Source: Alphaproteobacteria bacterium (GTDB lineage Bacteria; Pseudomonadota; Alphaproteobacteria; CAAHEQ01; UBA3637). From it: a DNA stretch of 64,000 bases. Shown in pieces: positions 2,151 to 56,237 of the stretch (positions are counted from its first letter, which is position 1; every line of letters begins with the position of its first letter). The translations under genes and the position numbers were made by a program. The stretch lies in NCBI GenBank assembly GCA_045118155.1, contig JBGUXS010000078.1, forward strand, positions 443-64,442. The letters are read 5' to 3'. Under the pieces are notes generated by a model. The model was not told the DNA's origin. It worked only from the letters and a program-made list of their open reading frames with translations, and searched no databases.

Positions 2151-2179
2151 TAGAAAAAAGCTTTTATTACGTGTATAAT
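2151..2179 (+). promoter_or_regulatory. Candidate sigma70 promoter for the orf380-virD4 operon (TAGAAA-17-TATAAT)
   Basis: A perfect TATAAT at 2174-2179 lies 20 nt upstream of the 2199 ATG. A -35-like TAGAAA sits at 2151-2156 with a 17-bp spacer. Confidence 0.45.
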
Positions 2180-2198: not shown

Positions 2199-3341
2199 AT
2201 GCAGAAAAAACGCACCTTTATTATTGGACTTATTTGGGGGCTAATCTTCTTTTGGTGGCTGCACAATTTTTTTTACTTGAATTGGTATTTTCGGTTTTAC
2301 AGTCCCAAAGCTTGGGTTTATTTACTTCATGAATTCAAGTACGGTTGGCGGGTACGGGCCGTTTCCGATTGGATCTTTATTTTTACCCTTATTTTCGCAT
2401 TACCTCTGTTTTTCTGGGGGTGGTATCTATGCTTAAAAATCAAATGGTTGGCTCTTTTTAAATGGATAAAAAAACAATTTTTAAAACTTACCAACAAAAA
2501 ATCAACTGTTGTAAAAAAACAAATGAAGTTAGCCGCTAAAAAAAGTGTGCAAAAAGAACGCCCCCCTGCCCTTGCAACCCCCAAAGTAACTAGTCCCGAA
2601 AAGAAAATGCAAAAAATGCCATCTTCTGCCATCAAAAAAGAAGAAATCGATTTAGATTTTTCTGCTAAAGAAGAATTTTTGAAAGAAGAAAACATTCAAA
2701 CGGCACCTCCTGCCAAAGAACATCGGGCCCCGGATCCACCAAAAGGGGGACCTTCTTTCCTATTTGAAGATGATGATATCCCGCAACAAAACAATGATGT
2801 TCGGGCCGACACACTGTTGTCTGAAATAAAAATGCCAGAACGAGAACGAACACAAGAAAATATCCCAGATATTATTCACGCGCATGGCTTTAAGCCCATC
2901 ACGGCCATTGTGCATCCAGATATTTCTTTTGCGGCCGTTTCTTCAGATACCCTTTTGGTTGCTTTTGTGGATGAAGAACCAGGAGATTGGCTAGCCGATG
3001 AAGAAGATTTTGAAGGGGAAGACCCCTTGTGGTTTTCAGAAAGTTTTCATCGGGTTTCCCCAGTTTTTAAACTATTAAAAGTTGCTAAAAAAATCAGGGC
3101 TCAGTTAGAAAATCAAGGACTTTCTCATAAAGTAATTCCTTACTTAATTGAAAAAATGGGAAATATTATTAACGTAGAAGATATGCAAGAAACGTGGAAA
3201 GAACTGGGGGTCATTGTCTGCCGAACAGATGTTGGGGGGGATGAAACATTACCCACAGTAGAAGCTTCTTTCCCGCAAGCAAAAGATGTTGCAGAAGCTG
3301 CTGATTTAGATATAATAAAAGAAATTTTAAAAAAGTTATAG
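2199..3341 (+). CDS. Hypothetical membrane protein: N-terminal TM segments, K/E/P-rich linker, acidic C-terminal globular domain
   Basis: 380-aa ORF ending 10 nt upstream of virD4. It has W/F-rich TM helices and a low-complexity linker. The C-terminal block (HGFKPITAIVHPDISFAAVSSDTLLVAFVDEEPGDW) loosely resembles a NERD/PD-(D/E)xK-type core, and I assign no family with confidence. Confidence 0.65.
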   Translation: MQKKRTFIIGLIWGLIFFWWLHNFFYLNWYFRFYSPKAWVYLLHEFKYGWRVRAVSDWIFIFTLIFALPLFFWGWYLCLKIKWLALFKWIKKQFLKLTNKKSTVVKKQMKLAAKKSVQKERPPALATPKVTSPEKKMQKMPSSAIKKEEIDLDFSAKEEFLKEENIQTAPPAKEHRAPDPPKGGPSFLFEDDDIPQQNNDVRADTLLSEIKMPERERTQENIPDIIHAHGFKPITAIVHPDISFAAVSSDTLLVAFVDEEPGDWLADEEDFEGEDPLWFSESFHRVSPVFKLLKVAKKIRAQLENQGLSHKVIPYLIEKMGNIINVEDMQETWKELGVIVCRTDVGGDETLPTVEASFPQAKDVAEAADLDIIKEILKKL

Positions 3342-3350
3342 GGGGAAAAG

Positions 3351-5522
3351 TTGGGCGCCTCTGACGCGATGTACACCGAACGTAAAAAATATACGTACTA
3401 TGTGGCAGCTATCGTAGTACTGGCTCTTTTTGTATCTTGGATAATGCTGTTAATTACAATTCCTTTACAAGCTTTTATCCGTCAAGGGTTAGATATTGAA
3501 GCTTGGAATTACAGTGTTTCCTTTTGGACACATGCTTGGCATCCAAAAGTCATTTTTCAAGTCCTCAATAGTTGGTTTGATTCCCTAAAAACGTTAAAAA
3601 ATCCCCATTGGACTTTATATTTACCCTTTTTATCCTTTTTTATTGGCTTTATCGTTTTAGTGATAGGGCTAAAAAAGAATCCCTTTGAATACACACCAAA
3701 TATTTTTGGGAATGGACGTTTAGCCACTTATGCTGATGTCAAAAAAATGAAATTATTTACTGGGTTCTGCATCGTTTTGGGACGTTTTAAAGGCAAGTTA
3801 TTAAAAATGCCAGAAACCTTAGCGGCCTTAGTTGTTGCGCCACCGGGGACTGGTAAAACCGCTGGGGTGGTGATTCCCACCATTTTTGAATCCCCAGGAT
3901 TGAGTATTATTGTAAACGACCCTAAACCAGAATTATGTTATACCACAACCGGATATCGGGCACAACAAGGGCCTGTGTTCGTTATTAACTGGGGGGCCGA
4001 TGATGAACCAGAAAAAGGGATTTTCTTCCCTAGTTGGAATCCACTTTCTGCTTCATGCTTACCAGCACCAGGTCCCGCCAGAGATATGTACATAGACTCT
4101 ATGGTGGCTATTTTGGTAGAAGTTAATGAAAAAGATCCTCACTGGGGGAAAACTGGGCGAAATGCTATGTCTGGTTTTTTGAACTTTATCGCCAGTAAAT
4201 GTGAACGGGCACTTGCTAACGATTACTTTACTTCACGTTTAATGGACGATTTATTTGATGATGAAGACGCGGCCGTTTTAGAAACATACTATGCGGATAT
4301 GAACGATCCTGATACAGGGTCTGCTTTACAGGCATTAAAAAATGGGTCTATGACACGGGAATCTTACGTCCCTATCGGTACATGGGCGGGGCTACCTTCT
4401 GTTTGGCAAGGAAAAGAACCTTGTATTGCTATGATTTTGGACTGGCTGACGGAAATGCAAATGAAAATCAATGCCGATATTAAACGCCGTATGGATGAAG
4501 GGGATCAAATGGCGGCCATGGCAGACCCCATGCGGGATCTATTGGAAAGTGCCATCAGTGAAGCAGCCCGCTATGGCTATGCCAGACGTTCTGTCACAGA
4601 ACTCAATCAATTATCCGCCACACCGGATAAGGAACGGGGGTCTATTTTATCCACGGCCCTTTCTGGGATCAGTATTTTTAAAAACTCGGCAGTGCGTTCT
4701 AGAACTAAGTTCAGTGACATTACTTTCCGTGATTTACGTGGGATGCGTGATCCTATTACAGGGGAACAAAAACCTATTTCGGTTTATCTATCCGTTAACC
4801 AGGTAGATGCCCAAGCCTTAAATGTCATTACTGGGATTTTTGTTGAATTGATGAGCAGTTTCTTAATCGCGAACCCCCCAAATTTTGTTGGGGCAGGCGG
4901 GAAAAAGGCGGGACCATTTCCTGTTTTATTTGTGCTTGACGAGTTTCCACAAATGCCAAAATTGGATGCTGTGAAAAACGGGCCTGCCGTAGGGCGGGGA
5001 CAGAAAGTTTCTTATTTGCTCATTGGGCAGGATCTTGGACAGATTTCTGGTAAATACGGGAAAGATGATTTGGAAACAATCATTACAACAACAGCCGCTA
5101 AAGTCATTCTTTCTCAAAACAACGAACAAACCGCTGAACGTTTTACAAAAATGATTGGGACTAAAACGATTCAAGTAACAAGTTCTAGCCGAACTGAAGG
5201 GATTTCCAACCAAAATAACCCCTTTGCGGCAAACGTAAGCCGTTCCTACCAAAGCTCAAACGTGGTCCAAGTATCTGATATGATGAGCTTAGATATGCTT
5301 AAACAATACGTTTTATTCCAAGGATATCTAAACCATCCTATCTTAGCGGATGCCCCTCGTTATTACTTAGATAAAGTCATGCAAAAGAAAGCGGCCATTC
5401 CCCCTTCCCCATTTGTTCCGTATTGGATTGTAGCGCAACGGGAAGATACCGATTTAGAAACATTAAAAGCTTTGATGCAAGAGGAATTAGCAGATTTGGA
5501 TATTATCATAGAGGATGAATAA
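3351..5522 (+). CDS. virD4: Type IV secretion system coupling protein VirD4/TraG
   Basis: N-terminal TM helices, Walker A VVAPPGTGKTAGVVIPT, Walker B-like FVLDEFPQMPKL and the TraG/VirD4 family pattern. A TTG start at 3351 follows AGGGGGA; an alternative ATG lies at 3369. Confidence 0.9.
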   Translation: MGASDAMYTERKKYTYYVAAIVVLALFVSWIMLLITIPLQAFIRQGLDIEAWNYSVSFWTHAWHPKVIFQVLNSWFDSLKTLKNPHWTLYLPFLSFFIGFIVLVIGLKKNPFEYTPNIFGNGRLATYADVKKMKLFTGFCIVLGRFKGKLLKMPETLAALVVAPPGTGKTAGVVIPTIFESPGLSIIVNDPKPELCYTTTGYRAQQGPVFVINWGADDEPEKGIFFPSWNPLSASCLPAPGPARDMYIDSMVAILVEVNEKDPHWGKTGRNAMSGFLNFIASKCERALANDYFTSRLMDDLFDDEDAAVLETYYADMNDPDTGSALQALKNGSMTRESYVPIGTWAGLPSVWQGKEPCIAMILDWLTEMQMKINADIKRRMDEGDQMAAMADPMRDLLESAISEAARYGYARRSVTELNQLSATPDKERGSILSTALSGISIFKNSAVRSRTKFSDITFRDLRGMRDPITGEQKPISVYLSVNQVDAQALNVITGIFVELMSSFLIANPPNFVGAGGKKAGPFPVLFVLDEFPQMPKLDAVKNGPAVGRGQKVSYLLIGQDLGQISGKYGKDDLETIITTTAAKVILSQNNEQTAERFTKMIGTKTIQVTSSSRTEGISNQNNPFAANVSRSYQSSNVVQVSDMMSLDMLKQYVLFQGYLNHPILADAPRYYLDKVMQKKAAIPPSPFVPYWIVAQREDTDLETLKALMQEELADLDIIIEDE

Positions 5523-6064
5523 TGACGGAAGATTTTAAGTTTGAAGATGGTCTAGGACAGGATTATTGGATTCGTGAATTTCATAAAATTCCCTTTCCAG
5601 GAATGGAATTGTTTGAAGTAACTTTTTTTAGACGTATAGAAGGGGCCTATGTGGATAAACATCAGCGCTTTAGAGAAATGGCCGTTGATTTTCTAAAAGA
5701 TTTAGGGAAAGAGGAAGAAGAACTTTATGCTTTTGAATTTTCTGAGGCCGAAGTCGCTTTGATTAAAAAAGGTCGTCTACCAGAAAATTATACTGTCCAT
5801 TTAAAATATCCTTTAGAATACGGTTGTGCATTGATCCCAGAACAATTTGTTTTGATGCCTATTGCCCCTTATTATCGGGATATTAATACTTATATCTTCA
5901 GACAACTTATAACCGATGAAGGAATTAAAAAGCCCCATCACCTTTATGTTCCCACACCAACAGGGCGTATTTATAAACCTTATTCTGGGGATGCAAGTGG
6001 CAGCGGTGGGAAAAGTAATACTTCCCAAATGGCGGCTATGTTTAACCAGGGGCGGGGGCGTTAA
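5522..6064 (+). CDS. Hypothetical 180-aa protein; candidate T4SS substrate or toxin with a degenerate HNH-like motif
   Basis: Its start overlaps the virD4 stop (TAATG) and follows a GAGGA RBS. The segment YTVHLKYPLEYGCALIPEQFVLMP parallels the colicin-DNase/HNH pattern H-H-x3-P-x4-GG-x5-N-x5-P with substitutions. The tail is Gly/Ser-rich and ends in basic GRGR. Confidence 0.6.
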   Translation: MTEDFKFEDGLGQDYWIREFHKIPFPGMELFEVTFFRRIEGAYVDKHQRFREMAVDFLKDLGKEEEELYAFEFSEAEVALIKKGRLPENYTVHLKYPLEYGCALIPEQFVLMPIAPYYRDINTYIFRQLITDEGIKKPHHLYVPTPTGRIYKPYSGDASGSGGKSNTSQMAAMFNQGRGR

Positions 6065-6065
6065 T

Positions 6066-6524
6066 ATGAAATTAATACATGTTGTTTTAAAAGCTATTTA
6101 TAAAGATGCCGCTGTTGTTTTTAATCCTGTGGCTTTGACTGATGTTCAAAAGGCCTCTTTTGAAATTGTAAAAAATAAAGGGATTAAAATTCCTAATGAT
6201 TATGCTGCCTTTTTAACAGAAGTTGATGGATTATCCTGGAATGGATTGTATCTTTTTTCCTTAAATGAAAAGGAACGTCAAGATGGCGCTTTTGTGCACC
6301 CTGGCATTCTACAAACATACCATAAGGGCTTAAAAAATCCGATTTTTAAAAACAGGCTTTTATTAGGATACGGCCCTGAAGAAATCATTACATATCATGC
6401 GGGAAAAAAAGAATATCAAATCCTAAGTCAATATGATTACAGAATCCTAGTACGGCTTCCCCGCTTCTTTGATGTACTGTATCACTATACCCATGCTTTA
6501 TTTGAGGATGCCCCTAAGGACTAG
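6066..6524 (+). CDS. SUKH / SMI1-KNR4-like protein (candidate immunity protein)
   Basis: The ATG at 6066 lies 2 nt after the orf180 stop and follows a G-rich SD. GIKIPNDYAAFLTEVDGLSWNGLYLFSL and LLLGYGPEEIITYHAGKKEYQIL fit the SMI1_KNR4 pattern (lP.dY..FL...nG, then fg.d....i.yd). The longer track ORF starting at 5916 overlaps orf180 and was not used. Confidence 0.6.
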   Translation: MKLIHVVLKAIYKDAAVVFNPVALTDVQKASFEIVKNKGIKIPNDYAAFLTEVDGLSWNGLYLFSLNEKERQDGAFVHPGILQTYHKGLKNPIFKNRLLLGYGPEEIITYHAGKKEYQILSQYDYRILVRLPRFFDVLYHYTHALFEDAPKD

Positions 6525-6895
6525 GACAAATCTTGCTTAACATGTGGCGTTTGCAAAAGTTCTTCAATGTGATCGGCCACTTCTAAGGAAGTATCTTTTT
6601 TAAAGATTAAATCTGGCACAATTCTTAACCGGATTTCTTTTCCAATGCGGTAACGAAAAAGGCCTTTATGTGCATTTAACAACTTCACTTGTTCATTCAC
6701 ATCAATTCCCCCGATACCATTTACAAAAACACTTGCGTAACTCAAATCTGGGGAAATGTTAGCTTGTGTGATTTGTAAAGCCCTTGGTTTTAAACCTGAA
6801 ATAAACAAATCCTCTTTAACCAACATCTGTCCAATTAGACGCCGAATGCTTTCTGAAACCCGAAGTTGCCGTTGTGATTGTTCTGACGTTTTCAT
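6521..6895 (-). CDS. rbfA: Ribosome-binding factor A
   Basis: SQRQLRVSESIRRLIGQML and ITQANISPDLSYASVFV are RbfA signatures. The Met at 6895 is preferred; the ORF is open to 6931. Confidence 0.9.
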   Translation of the reverse strand: MKTSEQSQRQLRVSESIRRLIGQMLVKEDLFISGLKPRALQITQANISPDLSYASVFVNGIGGIDVNEQVKLLNAHKGLFRYRIGKEIRLRIVPDLIFKKDTSLEVADHIEELLQTPHVKQDLS

Positions 6896-6939: not shown

Positions 6940-7680
6940 TTAGAACAAGTATCTAAGCCCCACCAAAACCGTCTGACTTTTATTTTCAACAGAAATCGGA
7001 GTTTTAGAAACTTTATCTGTCAATGAAATACGGCCTGGATCCATATAACGGTACCCTACATCTAAATCCAAATCCCGACCTAAATGTGTCGTGACACCGG
7101 CGGCTACATTCCAAGCCATTTTATACTTCCATGTTTCATGATTATAATGGTTCGTTCCTTTGTCTGATTGAACACGAATACGGGATTGGCTGACCCCGAT
7201 TCCTCCCCCAATATAAGGGCTAAAAGTATAAGAAGGGAACAAATCATAATAGGCATTCAAAAAATAAGTATTCATTTTAATATTGCTTGCCCGAACCCGT
7301 GTTCCATCATCCAACTTAAATACCGCATCCCTTTTCCCATGAGAATTATAGCTACCTTCAAGTTCCGTCCGCACATTTCCAAGCATTGTTTTGACTTGAA
7401 CCCCCAAAGCCCCGCTTAATTCCATCAGCTCATCCTTTTTTTTCTGAGATTGCCCCCCAATAGCGGGTTCAAAATCCCGTCCTTTATAGCCGATTTTTGC
7501 CTCAACATAAACCCGTTGACTAGGTTCCAAAGAATTATCTTTCAGACTCTCTTCCATATATTTGTTCTTATCATCCATCACGTAAAAATCAGTATCTCCC
7601 GCATAAGAGGCATAGTAGACACCAGCTTGTGCGTAATAACTTGACAAAACAAAAAAAGTAAAAATAAGCTTCTTCATCAT
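6940..7680 (-). CDS. Outer-membrane beta-barrel protein (OMP_b-brl / Omp25-like family)
   Basis: Signal peptide MMKKLIFTFFVLSSYYAQA, alternating amphipathic beta strands and a C-terminal LVGLRYLF with terminal Phe. Confidence 0.75.
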   Translation of the reverse strand: MMKKLIFTFFVLSSYYAQAGVYYASYAGDTDFYVMDDKNKYMEESLKDNSLEPSQRVYVEAKIGYKGRDFEPAIGGQSQKKKDELMELSGALGVQVKTMLGNVRTELEGSYNSHGKRDAVFKLDDGTRVRASNIKMNTYFLNAYYDLFPSYTFSPYIGGGIGVSQSRIRVQSDKGTNHYNHETWKYKMAWNVAAGVTTHLGRDLDLDVGYRYMDPGRISLTDKVSKTPISVENKSQTVLVGLRYLF

Positions 7681-7698: not shown

Positions 7699-9510
7699 TT
7701 AGTCCCGTGTTACTTCGGGAAGGGTAAAATTATTTTCATCAAAAACACAGTATGTTTCAACCCGGGCGCTTAACGTATTGTCCCCCAAAGTTCCCCCTGT
7801 AAAATTCGTGGAACCCGCCCCCGTAACATAGCCAACTTCTATCCCCCATACTCTGGCAATATCCGCTTCGGTTTCTGCCTTTGCTTTATGAACATTATTA
7901 ACAGCCACAGCCACCGTATAGCGCGACACATTTGCATTTGTGACATTTGTGGTAGATCCATTTGTTACACCTTCAAAACTGTTCAAAACGTCCTTTCCGG
8001 TTGTTCGGATCGGGGTAACCACCAAAGCGGCCTTATATCCGGCCGGGCATGCTGGCGTTGTCACATTTGCCCGCAAGCAATTGTTCGTATATCCACTACA
8101 GTTCCCTAAATTAGCTTCTGTCGTTAATTCGGTAATAGATTTTGAAACATAATTCGGCAAGATATCACTTAATCTCGCCCCACCACGAGAAGCCAACTTA
8201 ACATCATTCATCACAGACGTATAAGCTGGATCTACCTGATAATGATCATACGTTTCTGATTCATTAGCAGCTTGAGCATCCACAAATTCAACGGATGAAT
8301 CAATACCTTTTGCAGACACGACTGCATTTTCTACTAACTGACCATCTGCATCATAAGCATTCAGCGTAACTTTCCCCTTGGAAGATCCATCTGTGGCTTC
8401 TTCAGCTTCGGCCTTTAAGACATCACGTCCGGCACTATCTCTGGTAATAATCTGCCCATTAGCATTGACAATAACCCGACGTTTGCCCGTGGCATCATAA
8501 ACGGTCACTGCCCGCTTGTCATTATCCACAGGATCAGTGGAAATAACGGCCGTTGAAACAAAGGCTTGAATTGTTTCCCCATCGTTCACGGGATCATCCA
8601 TAGAAACCGCTTGACGTCCTACATGCAAATCATTGCGGACATAAACATTCCCCGGGGTTCCTGCCAATCCTTCATCCGTTCCGTTTTCAAGATGTTCTGC
8701 CCCTACCCAAAATAAGGGGGCACATTCTTCCCCTGCATCCAAAATTGTATAACCGGTTGCATCTTTTCTAAAGCAATTCGTATTTCCTTCGCCAATAGAA
8801 AAATAGCTCCAAGCATGCAAGTTTTTGAAAGCGGCTTCATCTTCTAAAGAAGAAAAGAGTGCCCCTTCATCAAATCCAGTAAATGCAACATAAGACGGGC
8901 TTACCACAGGTTCCATCATCAAAGATGCCCCTTCTAATTCCCAAGTTCCCATGGTGCCTACAAAATTATCCCCTTGGACGATACCCCCATCAGCCCCAAT
9001 CAAGGCAGCGATACTAGCCGCCCGCTTTAAATTCCATGTTCCTTGCGGCAGTGCCGATGCTTTAGGTAAGATAACTCCATAAAAAGAGGTCCCAACTTTT
9101 GCCCCTTCCGTATTTTCTAAATTTTTCCCAAAAAGGTAAAAATTGTATTTTTCAGCCGTACTTGATGTCAAAACATCCCCTGTGTACGTGTTATAGGTCA
9201 CTGGTAAGTATGTTGCCACATTTTTCCACAACGTGTTATATGAACAATTGGAAGTTTCTGTTCCAGACAATGCACAAACCCCACCACCGGCTGTGGCTAA
9301 TTCTTCAAGTTGCCTATGTTGCGTTTGGATAAAAGAGGAAAAAGCTTCCTTCATCGTACGCATTTCGGTCGCTACATTAACATTGGCTAGTTCCCGATTA
9401 CGTTGTGCCACTTGCCTATACAAAACAGGTCCCAACACCGCCAAGATCCCTAAGACGGCAATAGCTTCTATCATAATAGACCCAGATTGGGTTTTTACAG
9501 CTTTTTTCAT
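7699..9510 (-). CDS. Large (603 aa) protein with a prepilin/TadE-like class III signal N-terminus
   Basis: The N-terminus MKKAVKTQSG|SIMIEAIAVLGILAVLGPVLY has Gly at -1, Glu at +5 and a hydrophobic helix. The remainder is T/N/G/A/V-rich with Cys pairs near the C-terminus. A consensus promoter lies upstream. Confidence 0.7.
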   Translation of the reverse strand: MKKAVKTQSGSIMIEAIAVLGILAVLGPVLYRQVAQRNRELANVNVATEMRTMKEAFSSFIQTQHRQLEELATAGGGVCALSGTETSNCSYNTLWKNVATYLPVTYNTYTGDVLTSSTAEKYNFYLFGKNLENTEGAKVGTSFYGVILPKASALPQGTWNLKRAASIAALIGADGGIVQGDNFVGTMGTWELEGASLMMEPVVSPSYVAFTGFDEGALFSSLEDEAAFKNLHAWSYFSIGEGNTNCFRKDATGYTILDAGEECAPLFWVGAEHLENGTDEGLAGTPGNVYVRNDLHVGRQAVSMDDPVNDGETIQAFVSTAVISTDPVDNDKRAVTVYDATGKRRVIVNANGQIITRDSAGRDVLKAEAEEATDGSSKGKVTLNAYDADGQLVENAVVSAKGIDSSVEFVDAQAANESETYDHYQVDPAYTSVMNDVKLASRGGARLSDILPNYVSKSITELTTEANLGNCSGYTNNCLRANVTTPACPAGYKAALVVTPIRTTGKDVLNSFEGVTNGSTTNVTNANVSRYTVAVAVNNVHKAKAETEADIARVWGIEVGYVTGAGSTNFTGGTLGDNTLSARVETYCVFDENNFTLPEVTRD

Positions 9511-53441: not shown

Positions 53442-53517
53442 GTTTTTTTCATAAAAGCATTTTCTGCCTTTACTTTTCATCTCTTTTTGATTATGCTTGT
53501 TTCTACAAGGGGGTAAT

Positions 53518-53805
53518 ATGCGGGAACCTATTTTAAAAGCGGTCAGTATGCCGGCGCGTATTTTATGGGCGCCGTCGGTTCCGGCGTTGTTAAACATGGT
53601 TTGTCAATTACCTTTCATGTTGTTCTATGCGGGACAAGGGGGCAACCCTTTGCTATTCATGGGAACTATCATCGGGGTTCATGCCTTAATTGCTCTTTAT
53701 GCCGCGAAAGAACCTCATTTATCTAATATGTTCAAAGCCCAAGGTCCTTTCTTTAAGAAAAGTTCACAAATGTATACCTCATCAGGAAGAAAATACGCCC
53801 CATGA
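53518..53805 (+). CDS. virB3: Type IV secretion system protein VirB3
   Basis: ~96 aa. ILKAVSMPARILWAPSVPALLNM (L.ka.tRP...GvP pattern) and two TM helices. ATGA overlap with virB4. The track ORF starts earlier, at 53497. Confidence 0.8.
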   Translation: MREPILKAVSMPARILWAPSVPALLNMVCQLPFMLFYAGQGGNPLLFMGTIIGVHALIALYAAKEPHLSNMFKAQGPFFKKSSQMYTSSGRKYAP

Positions 53806-56237
53806 ATCAAACAGATGTTTTCGCCCTTATTTTACAAAATGCTTCCTCTACGGGGTTACTTATTGCCTTGTTAGGAGTATTAGCACTTGTTTTTGTCATG
53901 GTTGTATTTGTGACCTCCTTAGGAAATATGTTACTTCCCAAACCAAAAGAAACCCTTGTTTCTGATTTTCTTCCTTTTTCAAGGCTAGACCCAGATGGTG
54001 CCACCATTTACATGCGTAATGGTACTTTGGCTCGTGTTTTTGAATTAACAGGAACGGATACCACTTTAGCAAGTGATATTGAACGTAAAGCCTTAATGGA
54101 AAAACGGCAACAATGGATTGATTCACTAAGTGAATTAGAAATTATTTGCAGGGTTATTACGATTCGTGAAAAAATTCCTTTAGCCGAAGAAACACTACAT
54201 CCAGATAATCCTTTGCTCAATAAAGTGTCAGAACTTTGGTTGAACAGTTTACACCGTATTTTCAGAAACAAACATTACCTAATTCTTTCCGTTAATGATC
54301 GTAAGGATGCCATTAATGATTTAATTCAGGCAACAAATGCGACTCTTTCTATTTTAGATGTTTATCATCCTATTCTTATTTCTGAAAAAACCCCAGATAA
54401 ACATCAAGACAAAAGCCCCTTTTGGGTTTTTTCACAACTTGTCAGCCCCGTATCAAACCCCAAACCCATTGTAGGCTTTGAAAAAGGGGAAGAACTTAAT
54501 TCCTTTTTAACGTCTGACTATATCCACTTCACAAAAGATGAAGGGATTATCCGTTTCTTTTCTGGGGATAGGGAAAAATTAGCCATTTGTATCGGTATTC
54601 GTAAGCCTGGGGATTTCATGGATGAACAAATGGTTGCCCGTATTTTAGGAATTGATTGTGAAGTTGTTATTACACACAATATCCATGCTATTCCAAAAGC
54701 AAAAGGAAACCTGTTAATGATTCAACAACGCCGTATGGCTTACTTAACAAGTTTTTCTGAAAGTGTACGTTCCCAATATAATACCGCCATGCAATTAATG
54801 GATCCTTCTGATATTAATTCACAAACCCTTAATGAATATTCTATGTCTATTATGGTTTATGGGGAATCTAAGGAAGAACTTGTTTTTGGACAACAGGAAG
54901 TTGAAAAAATATGCCGACTTTACGGGGTGACCCCTGTGCGAGAAGGTTGGATTACTCAAGCTGTTTTCTTTTCTCAAATTCCCTCTTATGAAGTATATCC
55001 ACGTACATACTTGTATTTATCGCGGGTAGTGGCGTGTTCCATTTGCATGGATAAAACAACTGAAGGCCGGCAAAAATCTGATTGGGGGCCTGTGCCTATT
55101 TCTTACTTCCGGACTATTACGGGGACCCCTTACGCTTTCCAATTTCATGTAACAGAAGAACCCTATGCTGTGGCACATACAGCCCTTATTGGTCCAACGG
55201 GACAAGGGAAAACAACCTTATTTTCATTTTTAGCAGGCCAATCTTCCCGTATTCCAGATTTACGGACTTATTTCTTTGACCGTAACAATGGGGCCAAAGT
55301 TTTTGCTTTATTACAAGGGGCTCCTTATGTGCGGTTTGATGGGGGGGACAATGCTGTTGCCTTAAATCCTTTCTTTATGCCAGATTCCCCTGAAAACAGG
55401 GCATTTTTACGATCTTGGTTACGCTCTATTACTGGCTGTACAGATGCTTTTTCCGAAGAAGAAATTGCCCGAGCCGTTACAACAGCTTATGACTATTTAA
55501 AACCAGAAGAACGTCTTTTGAAGAACTTGTATAAAAGCTCTTTTTCCTTAAACGGAGATATGCGCCGTGAACTAAAACGTTGGGTCAGTGATGATCAATA
55601 TGGTCGGATCTTTAATGCCGAAGAAGATAAATTAGATATTGATAACCGCTATACTGGTTTTGATTTTACGCATATTTTCCAAGATGGGACGTTGGCTCCT
55701 GCTGTCATCAGTTATATCATGTACCGCATTCATGAATTAGCTAGTTTAAAAGGGACCCCCTCGTTAGTGATGATTGATGAAACGGCCCCTATGTTAGAAC
55801 ATCCTATGTTCCGAGACAATTTCATTGTAGGCCTTCGGGAAGGACGAAAGAAACGACAAGCATTCTTATGTGCTTTCCAGCAACCTCGCTTTTTAGATGA
55901 AAACGGTTTAGGGGATGTGATTCGTGGCCAATGTCAAACCATTATTTTCTTTAGAAATTTACAGGCAACCCCCGCGGATTATGAATCTTGGAATTTAACC
56001 CCAAGTGAACTAAACTTTATTCTAGGAAAAGAATTTATTGATCATAAATACGCCATCCTTGTCAAACGGCCCGCTGTTAATGAATCTGTTATCTTAGATA
56101 TTAATTTGGGGGGATTAGGTCCCTACTTAAAAATTTATTCTTCTGGGAATAAAAATGTGGCCTTAGTTGAACGTCTTAGTCATGAACTAAAATATGCTAA
56201 AGATATCCTACAACAATATCTACAGTTATCTGATTAG
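53802..56237 (+). CDS. virB4: Type IV secretion system ATPase VirB4
   Basis: 811 aa of CagE/TrbE/VirB4 architecture. Walker A LIGPTGQGKTT and Walker B-like SLVMIDETAPML. Confidence 0.92.
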   Translation: MNQTDVFALILQNASSTGLLIALLGVLALVFVMVVFVTSLGNMLLPKPKETLVSDFLPFSRLDPDGATIYMRNGTLARVFELTGTDTTLASDIERKALMEKRQQWIDSLSELEIICRVITIREKIPLAEETLHPDNPLLNKVSELWLNSLHRIFRNKHYLILSVNDRKDAINDLIQATNATLSILDVYHPILISEKTPDKHQDKSPFWVFSQLVSPVSNPKPIVGFEKGEELNSFLTSDYIHFTKDEGIIRFFSGDREKLAICIGIRKPGDFMDEQMVARILGIDCEVVITHNIHAIPKAKGNLLMIQQRRMAYLTSFSESVRSQYNTAMQLMDPSDINSQTLNEYSMSIMVYGESKEELVFGQQEVEKICRLYGVTPVREGWITQAVFFSQIPSYEVYPRTYLYLSRVVACSICMDKTTEGRQKSDWGPVPISYFRTITGTPYAFQFHVTEEPYAVAHTALIGPTGQGKTTLFSFLAGQSSRIPDLRTYFFDRNNGAKVFALLQGAPYVRFDGGDNAVALNPFFMPDSPENRAFLRSWLRSITGCTDAFSEEEIARAVTTAYDYLKPEERLLKNLYKSSFSLNGDMRRELKRWVSDDQYGRIFNAEEDKLDIDNRYTGFDFTHIFQDGTLAPAVISYIMYRIHELASLKGTPSLVMIDETAPMLEHPMFRDNFIVGLREGRKKRQAFLCAFQQPRFLDENGLGDVIRGQCQTIIFFRNLQATPADYESWNLTPSELNFILGKEFIDHKYAILVKRPAVNESVILDINLGGLGPYLKIYSSGNKNVALVERLSHELKYAKDILQQYLQLSD

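Follow-up and report, generated by a model that had tools for sequence, protein, structure and literature searches.

A cassette of toxin–immunity type that appears to have been joined to a type IV secretion system (T4SS) is described here in a 64,000-nucleotide stretch of DNA (the window) from an Alphaproteobacteria bacterium (contig JBGUXS010000078.1 of assembly GCA_045118155.1). The cassette consists of two short genes, orf180 and orf152, which directly follow virD4, the gene coding for a type IV coupling protein (T4CP). As judged from profile comparisons, the pair descends from an HNH–SUKH toxin–immunity cassette of the YhhZ/YrhA type. The residue taken to be the catalytic base of the toxin is replaced in every family member linked to virD4, and the same operon has been found in about 100 loci. 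The explanation favoured here, with moderate confidence, is that orf180–orf152 would be a domesticated toxin–immunity pair working with VirD4, either as a client and its chaperone or as subunits of the coupling complex. Cassettes of HNH toxins and SUKH immunity proteins are already known, as are T4SS effector/immunity pairs in Xanthomonadales, and the searchable literature yielded no paper that connects virD4 with cassettes of SUKH or HNH proteins in such a manner. The novelty lies in a known cassette without its catalytic base, welded to a virD4 operon and kept across about 100 lineages.

Ancestry of the orf180–orf152 pair

The virD4 gene extends from 3351 to 5522 on the + strand, and its product of 723 aa is a VirD4-type coupling protein by its domains, Walker A motif and membrane anchor. 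In Pfam, it matches T4SS-DNA_transf with 186 bits (E 1e-54) and TraG-D_C with 81 bits, above the respective cut-offs of 20 and 22 bits, as well as TrwB_AAD_bind with 66 bits, and its translation contains the sequence APPGTGKT (Walker A), hydrophobic N-terminal transmembrane segments and an acidic C-terminus. The start codon in the mechanical list of open reading frames (ORFs) is TTG, with an ATG 6 codons downstream. The final A of the virD4 stop codon (TAA, 5520–5522) also begins the ATG of orf180, which gives the 1-base overlap TAATG; orf180 (5522–6064, + strand, 180 aa) ends with the TAA at 6062–6064, and a single T at 6065 precedes the ATG of orf152 at 6066 (6066–6524, + strand, 152 aa). 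This spacing had been pointed out in an initial annotation of the window and is confirmed from the sequence, and the peptides quoted there (IKIPNDYAAFLTEVDGLSWNGLYLF, LLLGYGPEEIITY, YTVHLKYPLEYGCALIPEQFVLMP and the tail ending ...GSGGKSNTSQMAAMFNQGRGR) are all found in the translations. A longer ORF from 5916 was ruled out as the orf152 gene: all homologs begin at the same MKL..., and the true start of orf152 is therefore 6066. The tight spacing is not a product of chance, since a gap of 1–3 nt between orf180 and orf152 recurs in nearly all of 47 related loci, among which the 1-nt overlap at the VirD4–orf180 junction is also often found.

Direct searches of orf180 against Pfam, NCBIfam and PDB gave no match, and no member of its family passes the Pfam HNH profile directly. 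A Foldseek comparison of the AlphaFold2 (AF2) model of orf180 with the PDB returned nothing significant, Cas8-HNH being ranked first. The relationship has been detected by means of profiles. A search with an orf180-family profile of 1.84 billion representative proteins gave 528 matches at E<=1e-3 and 241 at E<=1e-10, and many of these cover only the globular domain, which is placed at the extreme C-terminus of long proteins where Pfam recognises RHS repeats, MuF_C, Portal_Mu, PT-HINT, PT-TG and HNH domains. Some of the homologous tips exceed the Pfam HNH cut-off of 21.4 bits, namely P0102 (21.9 bits), P0177 (23.6 bits) and a protein of IncHI2 plasmids (26.3 bits). In the two loci inspected, one of the Rhs type and the other of the PT-HINT type, the toxin gene is directly followed by a SMI1_KNR4 gene, and the two encoded proteins align with the orf152 family with hhalign probabilities of 97% and 88%. 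The orf180 profile also aligns with residues 257–386 of YhhZ (hhalign 97.8%, E 7e-13), matches Cas8-HNH among PDB profiles (E 0.003, reading 'EVHHIVPL') and brings orf180 into ungapped alignment with the toxin sequence 'VHHKLPLDDGG...N...PYH'. On these comparisons, orf180 is homologous to recognised HNH domains. Its globular part (aa 1–155, 5522–5986, + strand) is best described as a YhhZ-type HNH toxin domain with a putatively disarmed active site, and contains a putative beta-beta-alpha core (aa 90–129, 5789–5908, + strand), with the residues TVH93-L94-KYP...Q108...Y118...N122, that was delimited with the AF2 model (strands 90–94 and 109–113, helix 114–129) and motif tables. The core resembling that of HNH/colicin DNases, with several substitutions, that had been proposed from the sequence is supported, the domain being homologous to toxin tips encoded upstream of SUKH genes. 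Tox-REHH (2026 preprint), a divergent HNH toxin with SUKH proteins among its immunities, was considered as a relative and set aside, since its scaffold is described as distinct and no link to the orf180 family was found.

The partner protein has been harder to place by Pfam. In direct searches of Pfam, NCBIfam and PDB, orf152 returned only sub-threshold SUKH matches (SUKH_6 with 17.4 bits for a cut-off of 27, and SMI1_KNR4 with 16.4 bits for a cut-off of 25.4) and a near-threshold match to the YrhA family NF038335 (48.7 bits for a cut-off of 55, E 7e-13 over 113 residues). The same pattern is observed in its relatives, 12 of 12 matching SMI1_KNR4 below threshold only (best E 3e-4) and 12 of 12 matching the YrhA family (best E 8e-17). 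The protein has the SUKH alpha/beta fold, and these scores place it as a close outlier of the YrhA family, so that its assignment to SMI1-KNR4/SUKH in the initial annotation holds for the fold and falls short of the Pfam thresholds. Its position is also that of a cognate partner: orf152 sits 1 nt past a gene for a nuclease-toxin domain, as SUKH genes do after Rhs and PT-HINT toxins and after yhhZ.

By homology, YhhZ–YrhA and the polymorphic-toxin tips of this family are the nearest systems known. The 3' end of yhhZ overlaps yrhA in E. coli K-12, where the toxin domain is likewise followed by a SUKH protein. In YhhZ, an Hcp domain is joined to a region that matches HNH weakly, and the protein has been described as an evolved Hcp whose HNH domain is degenerate (PMC2907695). 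Hcp proteins with HNH-DNase extensions are antibacterial toxins that a type VI secretion system (T6SS) delivers, with cognate immunity proteins, and DNase toxicity has been reported for one of them, Hcp-ET1 (reviewed in PMC6730261). The likeness of the two systems involves both genes, since the orf180 domain aligns to YhhZ and orf152 to YrhA, in the same order and with the genes overlapping or adjacent. Hcp-ET1 is presumably the ortholog of YhhZ. On the other hand, YhhZ has an N-terminal Hcp domain, an intact HH motif and a T6SS route, whereas orf180 is free-standing, carries HL instead of HH (with QYN at the further positions in the window copy), is tailed and is coupled to VirD4. The toxin/immunity ancestry suggested by the initial annotation is correct, because the profile reaches both YhhZ–YrhA and toxin tips upstream of SUKH genes, and it can be narrowed to an HNH–SUKH cassette of the YhhZ/YrhA type, from which orf180–orf152 descend according to the alignments.

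The four-gene module and its conservation

The pair is part of a module of four genes, coding for a membrane NERD-like protein (up380), VirD4, orf180 and orf152, which was found in about 100 loci of Alphaproteobacteria that are uncultured and mostly from the gut. Scanning one genome per species yielded 42 loci, all in metagenome-assembled genomes, nearly all labelled as uncultured Alphaproteobacteria and mostly obtained from the gut of sheep, yak, deer, buffalo, rabbit and human; contig look-ups gave further loci, as did a scan of metagenomes for which a more divergent alignment was used. The 'intracellular-type' lifestyle assumed in the initial annotation is conjectural, the named relatives being nearly all gut metagenome assemblies. 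In 47 of the 47 loci of the first searches, and in one more distant locus beyond these, up380, T4CP, orf180 and orf152 lie in this order on the same strand. Another 45 metagenome loci, where orf180 is only 25–36% identical, keep the same order, with the T4CP gene upstream wherever at least 1 kb of upstream sequence exists. Across the loci, identity goes down to 25–45% in orf180 and 22–52% in orf152, and is 57–80% in VirD4, whose nearest plasmid relatives are 31% identical and lie within virB8-9-10-11-D4 clusters. The idea that the pair is hard-wired to virD4 is therefore supported by this survey of neighbourhoods in about 100 loci.

The nearest relatives of the window have this gene order too and share its housekeeping flanks, with lgt, DUF2062, Cu-oxidase_4 and RNHCP genes at one end of the module and rbfA at the opposite end, and hence the module is chromosomal and vertically inherited; it is also single-copy and syntenic. 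Neither spare cassettes nor orphan immunity genes were seen among the about 100 loci. In this respect polymorphic toxin loci are the reverse of the present one, and the suggestion of a polymorphic or variable toxin system did not survive. The polymorphic toxins (Rhs, MuF, PT-HINT, PT-TG, LXG; PMC3113570) carry, at the end of large variable proteins with trafficking domains, a homologous toxin domain about 140 aa long, and keep HH in their active site; their loci combine a large protein with trafficking or repeat domains, variable tips, and spare cassettes or orphan immunity genes. In contrast, orf180 is a small stand-alone protein of 180 aa, with one pair per locus at a fixed location, and has lost the putative base.

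The first gene of the module, up380 (2199–3341, + strand), lies directly upstream of VirD4 in every locus with adequate sequence. Two N-terminal transmembrane helices in its product are followed by a disordered, basic linker and then by a C-terminal domain that is cytoplasmic and conserved (alignment A3). The window copy itself gave no Pfam match and no PDB sequence match; in its family, NERD was matched in 4 of 13 members (best E 2.7e-5) and REase_MTES_1575 in 2 of 13, which points to a NERD or PD-(D/E)xK-like C-terminal domain. The canonical NERD motif is E-x-K, and that of the up380 family is D-x-E-x-GDW, the window copy having 'ISFAAV' where most relatives have 'DYVAV'. The C-terminal domain of up380 may be a second disarmed nuclease domain of the same operon. 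A promoter-like site precedes the module at 2151–2179 (+ strand), with 10 of 12 matches to the sigma-70 consensus, a match to consensus being weak evidence by itself; between 2179 and orf152, a scan with the same consensus gave no comparably good site, except for a 9/12 match inside virD4.

Active site and C-terminal tail of the orf180 family

In the toxin-type relatives of orf180 the active-site motif reads VHHK-x-P...GGTNDF-N...PYH, and its second His, which is followed by x-x-Pro, aligns with Leu94 of orf180. From established enzymology this His is taken here to be the general base and to correspond to H103 of colicin E9 and H840 of Cas9. The HH sequence is present in 87 of 170 aligned homologs, the long ones scanned with Pfam being toxin-type, whereas the VirD4-linked members read VH[L/I/V/M]K-x-P without exception. 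Among the loci of the metagenome scan, the HH type was seen only in L105–L107, where no VirD4 was seen, and no HL-type pair unlinked from a T4CP gene was found. The correlation between linkage to VirD4 and loss of the presumed base is perfect. Compared with colicins E9/E7 and their Im9/Im7 immunity proteins, the position of the general base H103 is taken by Leu94 here, and the partner is a SUKH protein where the immunity protein of colicins is a four-helix Im protein.

The window copy has gone further than the rest of the family. It carries Q108, Y118 and N122, where 65, 64 and 65 of 68 relatives have N, H and H, respectively, and the loss of the whole N/H/H set is restricted to this copy and a 98%-identical strain. 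Every non-catalytic invariant position is still present in the window protein, and the spacing of H93/N108/H118/H122 in the family matches the ligand set of colicin E9. In the family, the site gives the impression of having been turned into a pocket that lacks the base and binds metal or DNA. The window orf180 is most likely not a DNase, because the general-base His and also the N, H and H have been lost. Compared with the 60%-identical relative L048, the ratio of non-synonymous to synonymous substitution rates (dN/dS) is 0.24 for orf180, 0.09 for orf152 and 0.06 for VirD4, values suggesting that the pair is under continued constraint. In the search of representative proteins, P0059 (468 aa) and P0062 (519 aa) contain two tandem copies of the domain, the N-terminal one with 'RHIKP' (first His lost) and the C-terminal one with 'VHHK(M/R)P', and end in Pro/Gly-rich tails. 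The orf180-like genes of L088–L104 (about 5800–6600) keep H[L/I]...N...H...H and a downstream SUKH-like gene. The HL type also includes a short member, P0085.

The globular domain of orf180 is followed by a disordered tail (aa 156–180, GDASGSGGKSNTSQMAAMFNQGRGR; 5987–6064 including the stop codon, + strand) with a predicted local distance difference test score (pLDDT) below 50 and a pI of 10.8. In most lineages the tail is a longer linear motif, GGKNKQDRSVYAGF...MPGR (GGKxKxDRSVYAGF...MPGR), the full form, which ends in Arg, being (T)GSGGKNKQDRSVYAGF-x(3)-A-x(3)-IA-x-K-x-MPGR. No variation of the terminal Arg is seen in alignment A1, whose 19 sequences include both subclades. The window subclade has a shorter, G/S/N/A-rich tail where only GGK and the terminal GR are kept. 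Toxin-type relatives stop before the tail, at ...IYP-x-x, and a stand-alone HH-type relative, P0064, has an Arg-ending tail. When the conserved tail peptide was used as a query for other carriers, only one 64-aa fragment was returned. The tail could be, from its conservation, a docking peptide or a translocation signal. The initial annotation had likened the tail to the charged signals read by VirD4, a plausible reading in view of the conserved motif of many lineages, but one weakened by the degenerate tail of the window subclade and by the absence of a tail in some others. No XVIPCD-like domain had been seen, and none is apparent: the globular domain is followed by 25 disordered residues with no Pfam match, a judgement made on length and not with an XVIPCD profile. 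The sequence 'ASGSGGKS' of the window tail was also considered as a P-loop and discarded, since the family consensus TGSGGKN is unlike Walker A and the segment is predicted to be disordered. At the other end of the protein, orf180 homologs (P0011, P0012, P0038, P0044, L028, L031 and others) begin with extensions that are highly variable (0 to about 240 aa), made of acidic 'DLS..D..L.SWEELFPE' segments or long Q/P-rich low-complexity sequence; the window orf180 is devoid of any.

Possible roles at VirD4 and the rest of the secretion system

The explanation by domestication runs as follows. The ancestor was a DNase toxin domain of the HNH class with its SUKH immunity protein, as in YhhZ/YrhA, and the pair became fixed, in a single copy, in the four-gene operon of one clade of uncultured Alphaproteobacteria, mostly from the gut. 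The orf152 protein would still bind orf180 at the old active-site face, as immunity proteins bind toxins, and the resulting heterodimer would act at VirD4, the conserved C-terminal motif serving as a docking element where it is present. Two forms of this interaction can be envisaged and are about equally likely. In one, orf180 would be a non-nucleolytic client of VirD4 held by its chaperone-like partner until hand-over, as VirE1 holds VirE2, an example of a small partner encoded beside a nucleic-acid-binding T4SS client with a C-terminal signal. Alternatively, both proteins would be resident accessory subunits of the coupling complex, as DotM, DotN and IcmSW are for DotL. In the Dot/Icm system, the gene of a membrane protein lies directly upstream of the T4CP gene (dotM-dotL), the accessory subunits are small and DotN binds metal. 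The position of up380 upstream of VirD4 echoes the dotM-dotL order, as a functional analogy only. No significant match to DotM, DotN, IcmS or IcmW was found when the A1, A2 and A3 profiles were compared with the PDB, and homology of up380 and the T4CP to the DotM/DotL type was rejected, as neither the A3 profile nor the T4CP sequence gave a significant PDB match, so that only the analogy is kept. In fact, no sequence or fold relationship of the module to VirE2–VirE1 or to Dot/Icm was detected. Should the pair indeed work at VirD4, a conflict system would clearly have been recruited as secretion machinery or as a dedicated client of it.

Several observations weigh against this explanation. The human-gut, VirD4-linked L088–L104 are tailless and end in ...PWFEGK(F/I)Y(Y/H)D, the net charge of the tail is about 0 in some other groups, and no covariation of the tail was found with the acidic C-terminus of VirD4, which is acidic whether or not orf180 has a tail. 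About 95% of members, over a wide range, retain H93, N108, H118 and H122, as in a site that was remodelled rather than decayed, and a non-canonical catalytic activity is possible. The retention of an immunity-type partner could likewise reflect some residual toxicity. Finally, comparison with the near-identical strain L059 (4913–5455) gives 4 non-synonymous (F5C, V44A, R51K, A76T) and 2 synonymous changes in orf180, against 3 non-synonymous and 33 synonymous ones in up380, VirD4 and orf152 taken together (Fisher p = 0.004, on small numbers). The orf180 gene, apparently the least constrained of the module by these counts, could be under relaxed constraint in this lineage.

An extension of the domesticated pair to the whole operon is put forward more tentatively and is regarded as rather doubtful. 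According to it, the four genes would code for a previously unrecognised type IV coupling complex, made of disarmed parts of conflict systems and serving a VirB/D4-type system, in which the NERD-like protein, the pseudo-HNH protein and the former immunity protein SUKH would all be bound to VirD4, gating or selecting substrates. Such a complex, arisen through the domestication of a toxin and its immunity protein, would be the functional equivalent of DotL–DotM–DotN–IcmSW, and would give a handle on substrate recognition by the divergent, chromosomally scattered T4SS of an unstudied gut clade.

Among the alternatives to domestication, the one that survives best, although it is judged unlikely, is that orf180 is an active nuclease effector delivered by the T4SS against bacteria or hosts, with orf152 as its immunity protein and the tail recruiting it to VirD4. 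The closest systems by logic are the X-Tfe/X-Tfi pairs of Xanthomonadales, where a toxin-like T4SS protein with a C-terminal element read by VirD4 has its cognate protein encoded downstream (PMC6536674, PMC8740702), and where bactericidal effectors with adjacent immunity genes include the nuclease TfdA (PMC11253643, PMC6536674). The X-Tfes are many, variable and scattered, and their XVIPCD has about 120 residues, whereas orf180 belongs to one conserved pair and its tail has 25–35 residues or is absent. The HNH toxin ancestry with a SUKH partner and the tight translational coupling of the genes agree with an active effector, as do the metal-ligand-like H/N/H/H set kept in most members and a tail that is conserved in many lineages and absent from polymorphic toxin tips. 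Both proteins evolve much faster (25–45% identity) than VirD4 (57–80%), which is often true of effector/immunity pairs. However, an aliphatic residue occupies the place of the general-base His in 100% of the VirD4-linked members, the window copy is also devoid of N108, H118 and H122, and some VirD4-linked lineages are tailless; moreover, the locus is single-copy, fixed in position and vertically inherited, with no polymorphism or orphan immunity genes in about 100 loci. An active effector would need non-canonical catalysis, and is least likely for the window copy.

Less probable still is a role in DNA processing, with the module as an accessory set for DNA transfer or release by the T4SS in which the NERD-like and HNH-like proteins would bind or nick DNA under regulation by the SUKH protein. 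This role would fit two nuclease-derived domains flanking a VirD4 protein with relatives in conjugative DNA transfer. It would also fit the presence of a gene for a homologous HNH endonuclease, directly followed by one for a YrhA family protein, on 448 plasmids, of which 432 are conjugative, mostly IncHI2-type plasmids of Enterobacteriaceae where the pair adjoins trh transfer genes. Examples are the HNH–YrhA pairs of the Salmonella IncHI2 plasmid NZ_CP051274.1 (L055, 5323–6900) and of plasmid 2 of Polaromonas JS666 (L056, 5767–6979). The IncHI2 pair resembles orf180–orf152 in that the same two families are adjacent on a T4SS-encoding replicon, but its HNH protein is longer (353 aa, of which about 220 form an N-terminal region), keeps VHHK, has no tail, is not adjacent to a coupling-protein gene and, unlike orf180, passes the Pfam HNH profile (26 bits). 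Against the DNA-processing role, no relaxase, oriT or other DNA transfer and replication (Dtr) gene was seen in the annotated loci, the module lies among housekeeping genes rather than in a mobile element, the general base has been lost, the NERD-like site is non-canonical (D-x-E in the family, 'ISFAAV' for 'DYVAV' in the window), and the plasmid versions keep HH and are not linked to the T4CP gene. Finally, a selfish toxin–antitoxin or addiction cassette hitch-hiking beside virD4 with no role in secretion, conceivable because toxin/immunity cassettes are mobile and often inserted near other conflict systems (e.g. PMC3113570), is very improbable, since the position, orientation and 1–3 nt spacing are the same in about 100 loci at a T4CP identity of 57–80%, a disarmed toxin would not be retained as an addiction module, and no HL-type pair was found apart from a T4CP gene.

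Another component of the same T4SS is encoded in the window at 53802–56237 (+ strand), a VirB4 homolog (Pfam CagE_TrbE_VirB, E 5e-12) that is 69% identical to the VirB4 encoded 6 kb from the module in locus L001. No T4SS gene other than the module and VirB4 was found in the window. The virB4 gene lies 48 kb from the module, alone between gatB/gatA/gatC and acpS, and the T4SS genes are thus scattered among housekeeping genes. Upstream of it, an ORF of 102 aa at 53497–53805, with no Pfam match, is possibly VirB3-like by position. Closer to the module, a protein of 603 aa (7699–9510, - strand) has no Pfam match, and its N-terminus (MKKAVKTQSGSIMIEAIAVLGILAVLGPVLY) resembles a prepilin/pseudopilin-type signal with a hydrophobic helix; an outer membrane protein (OMP) beta-barrel gene (6940–7680) adjoins it.

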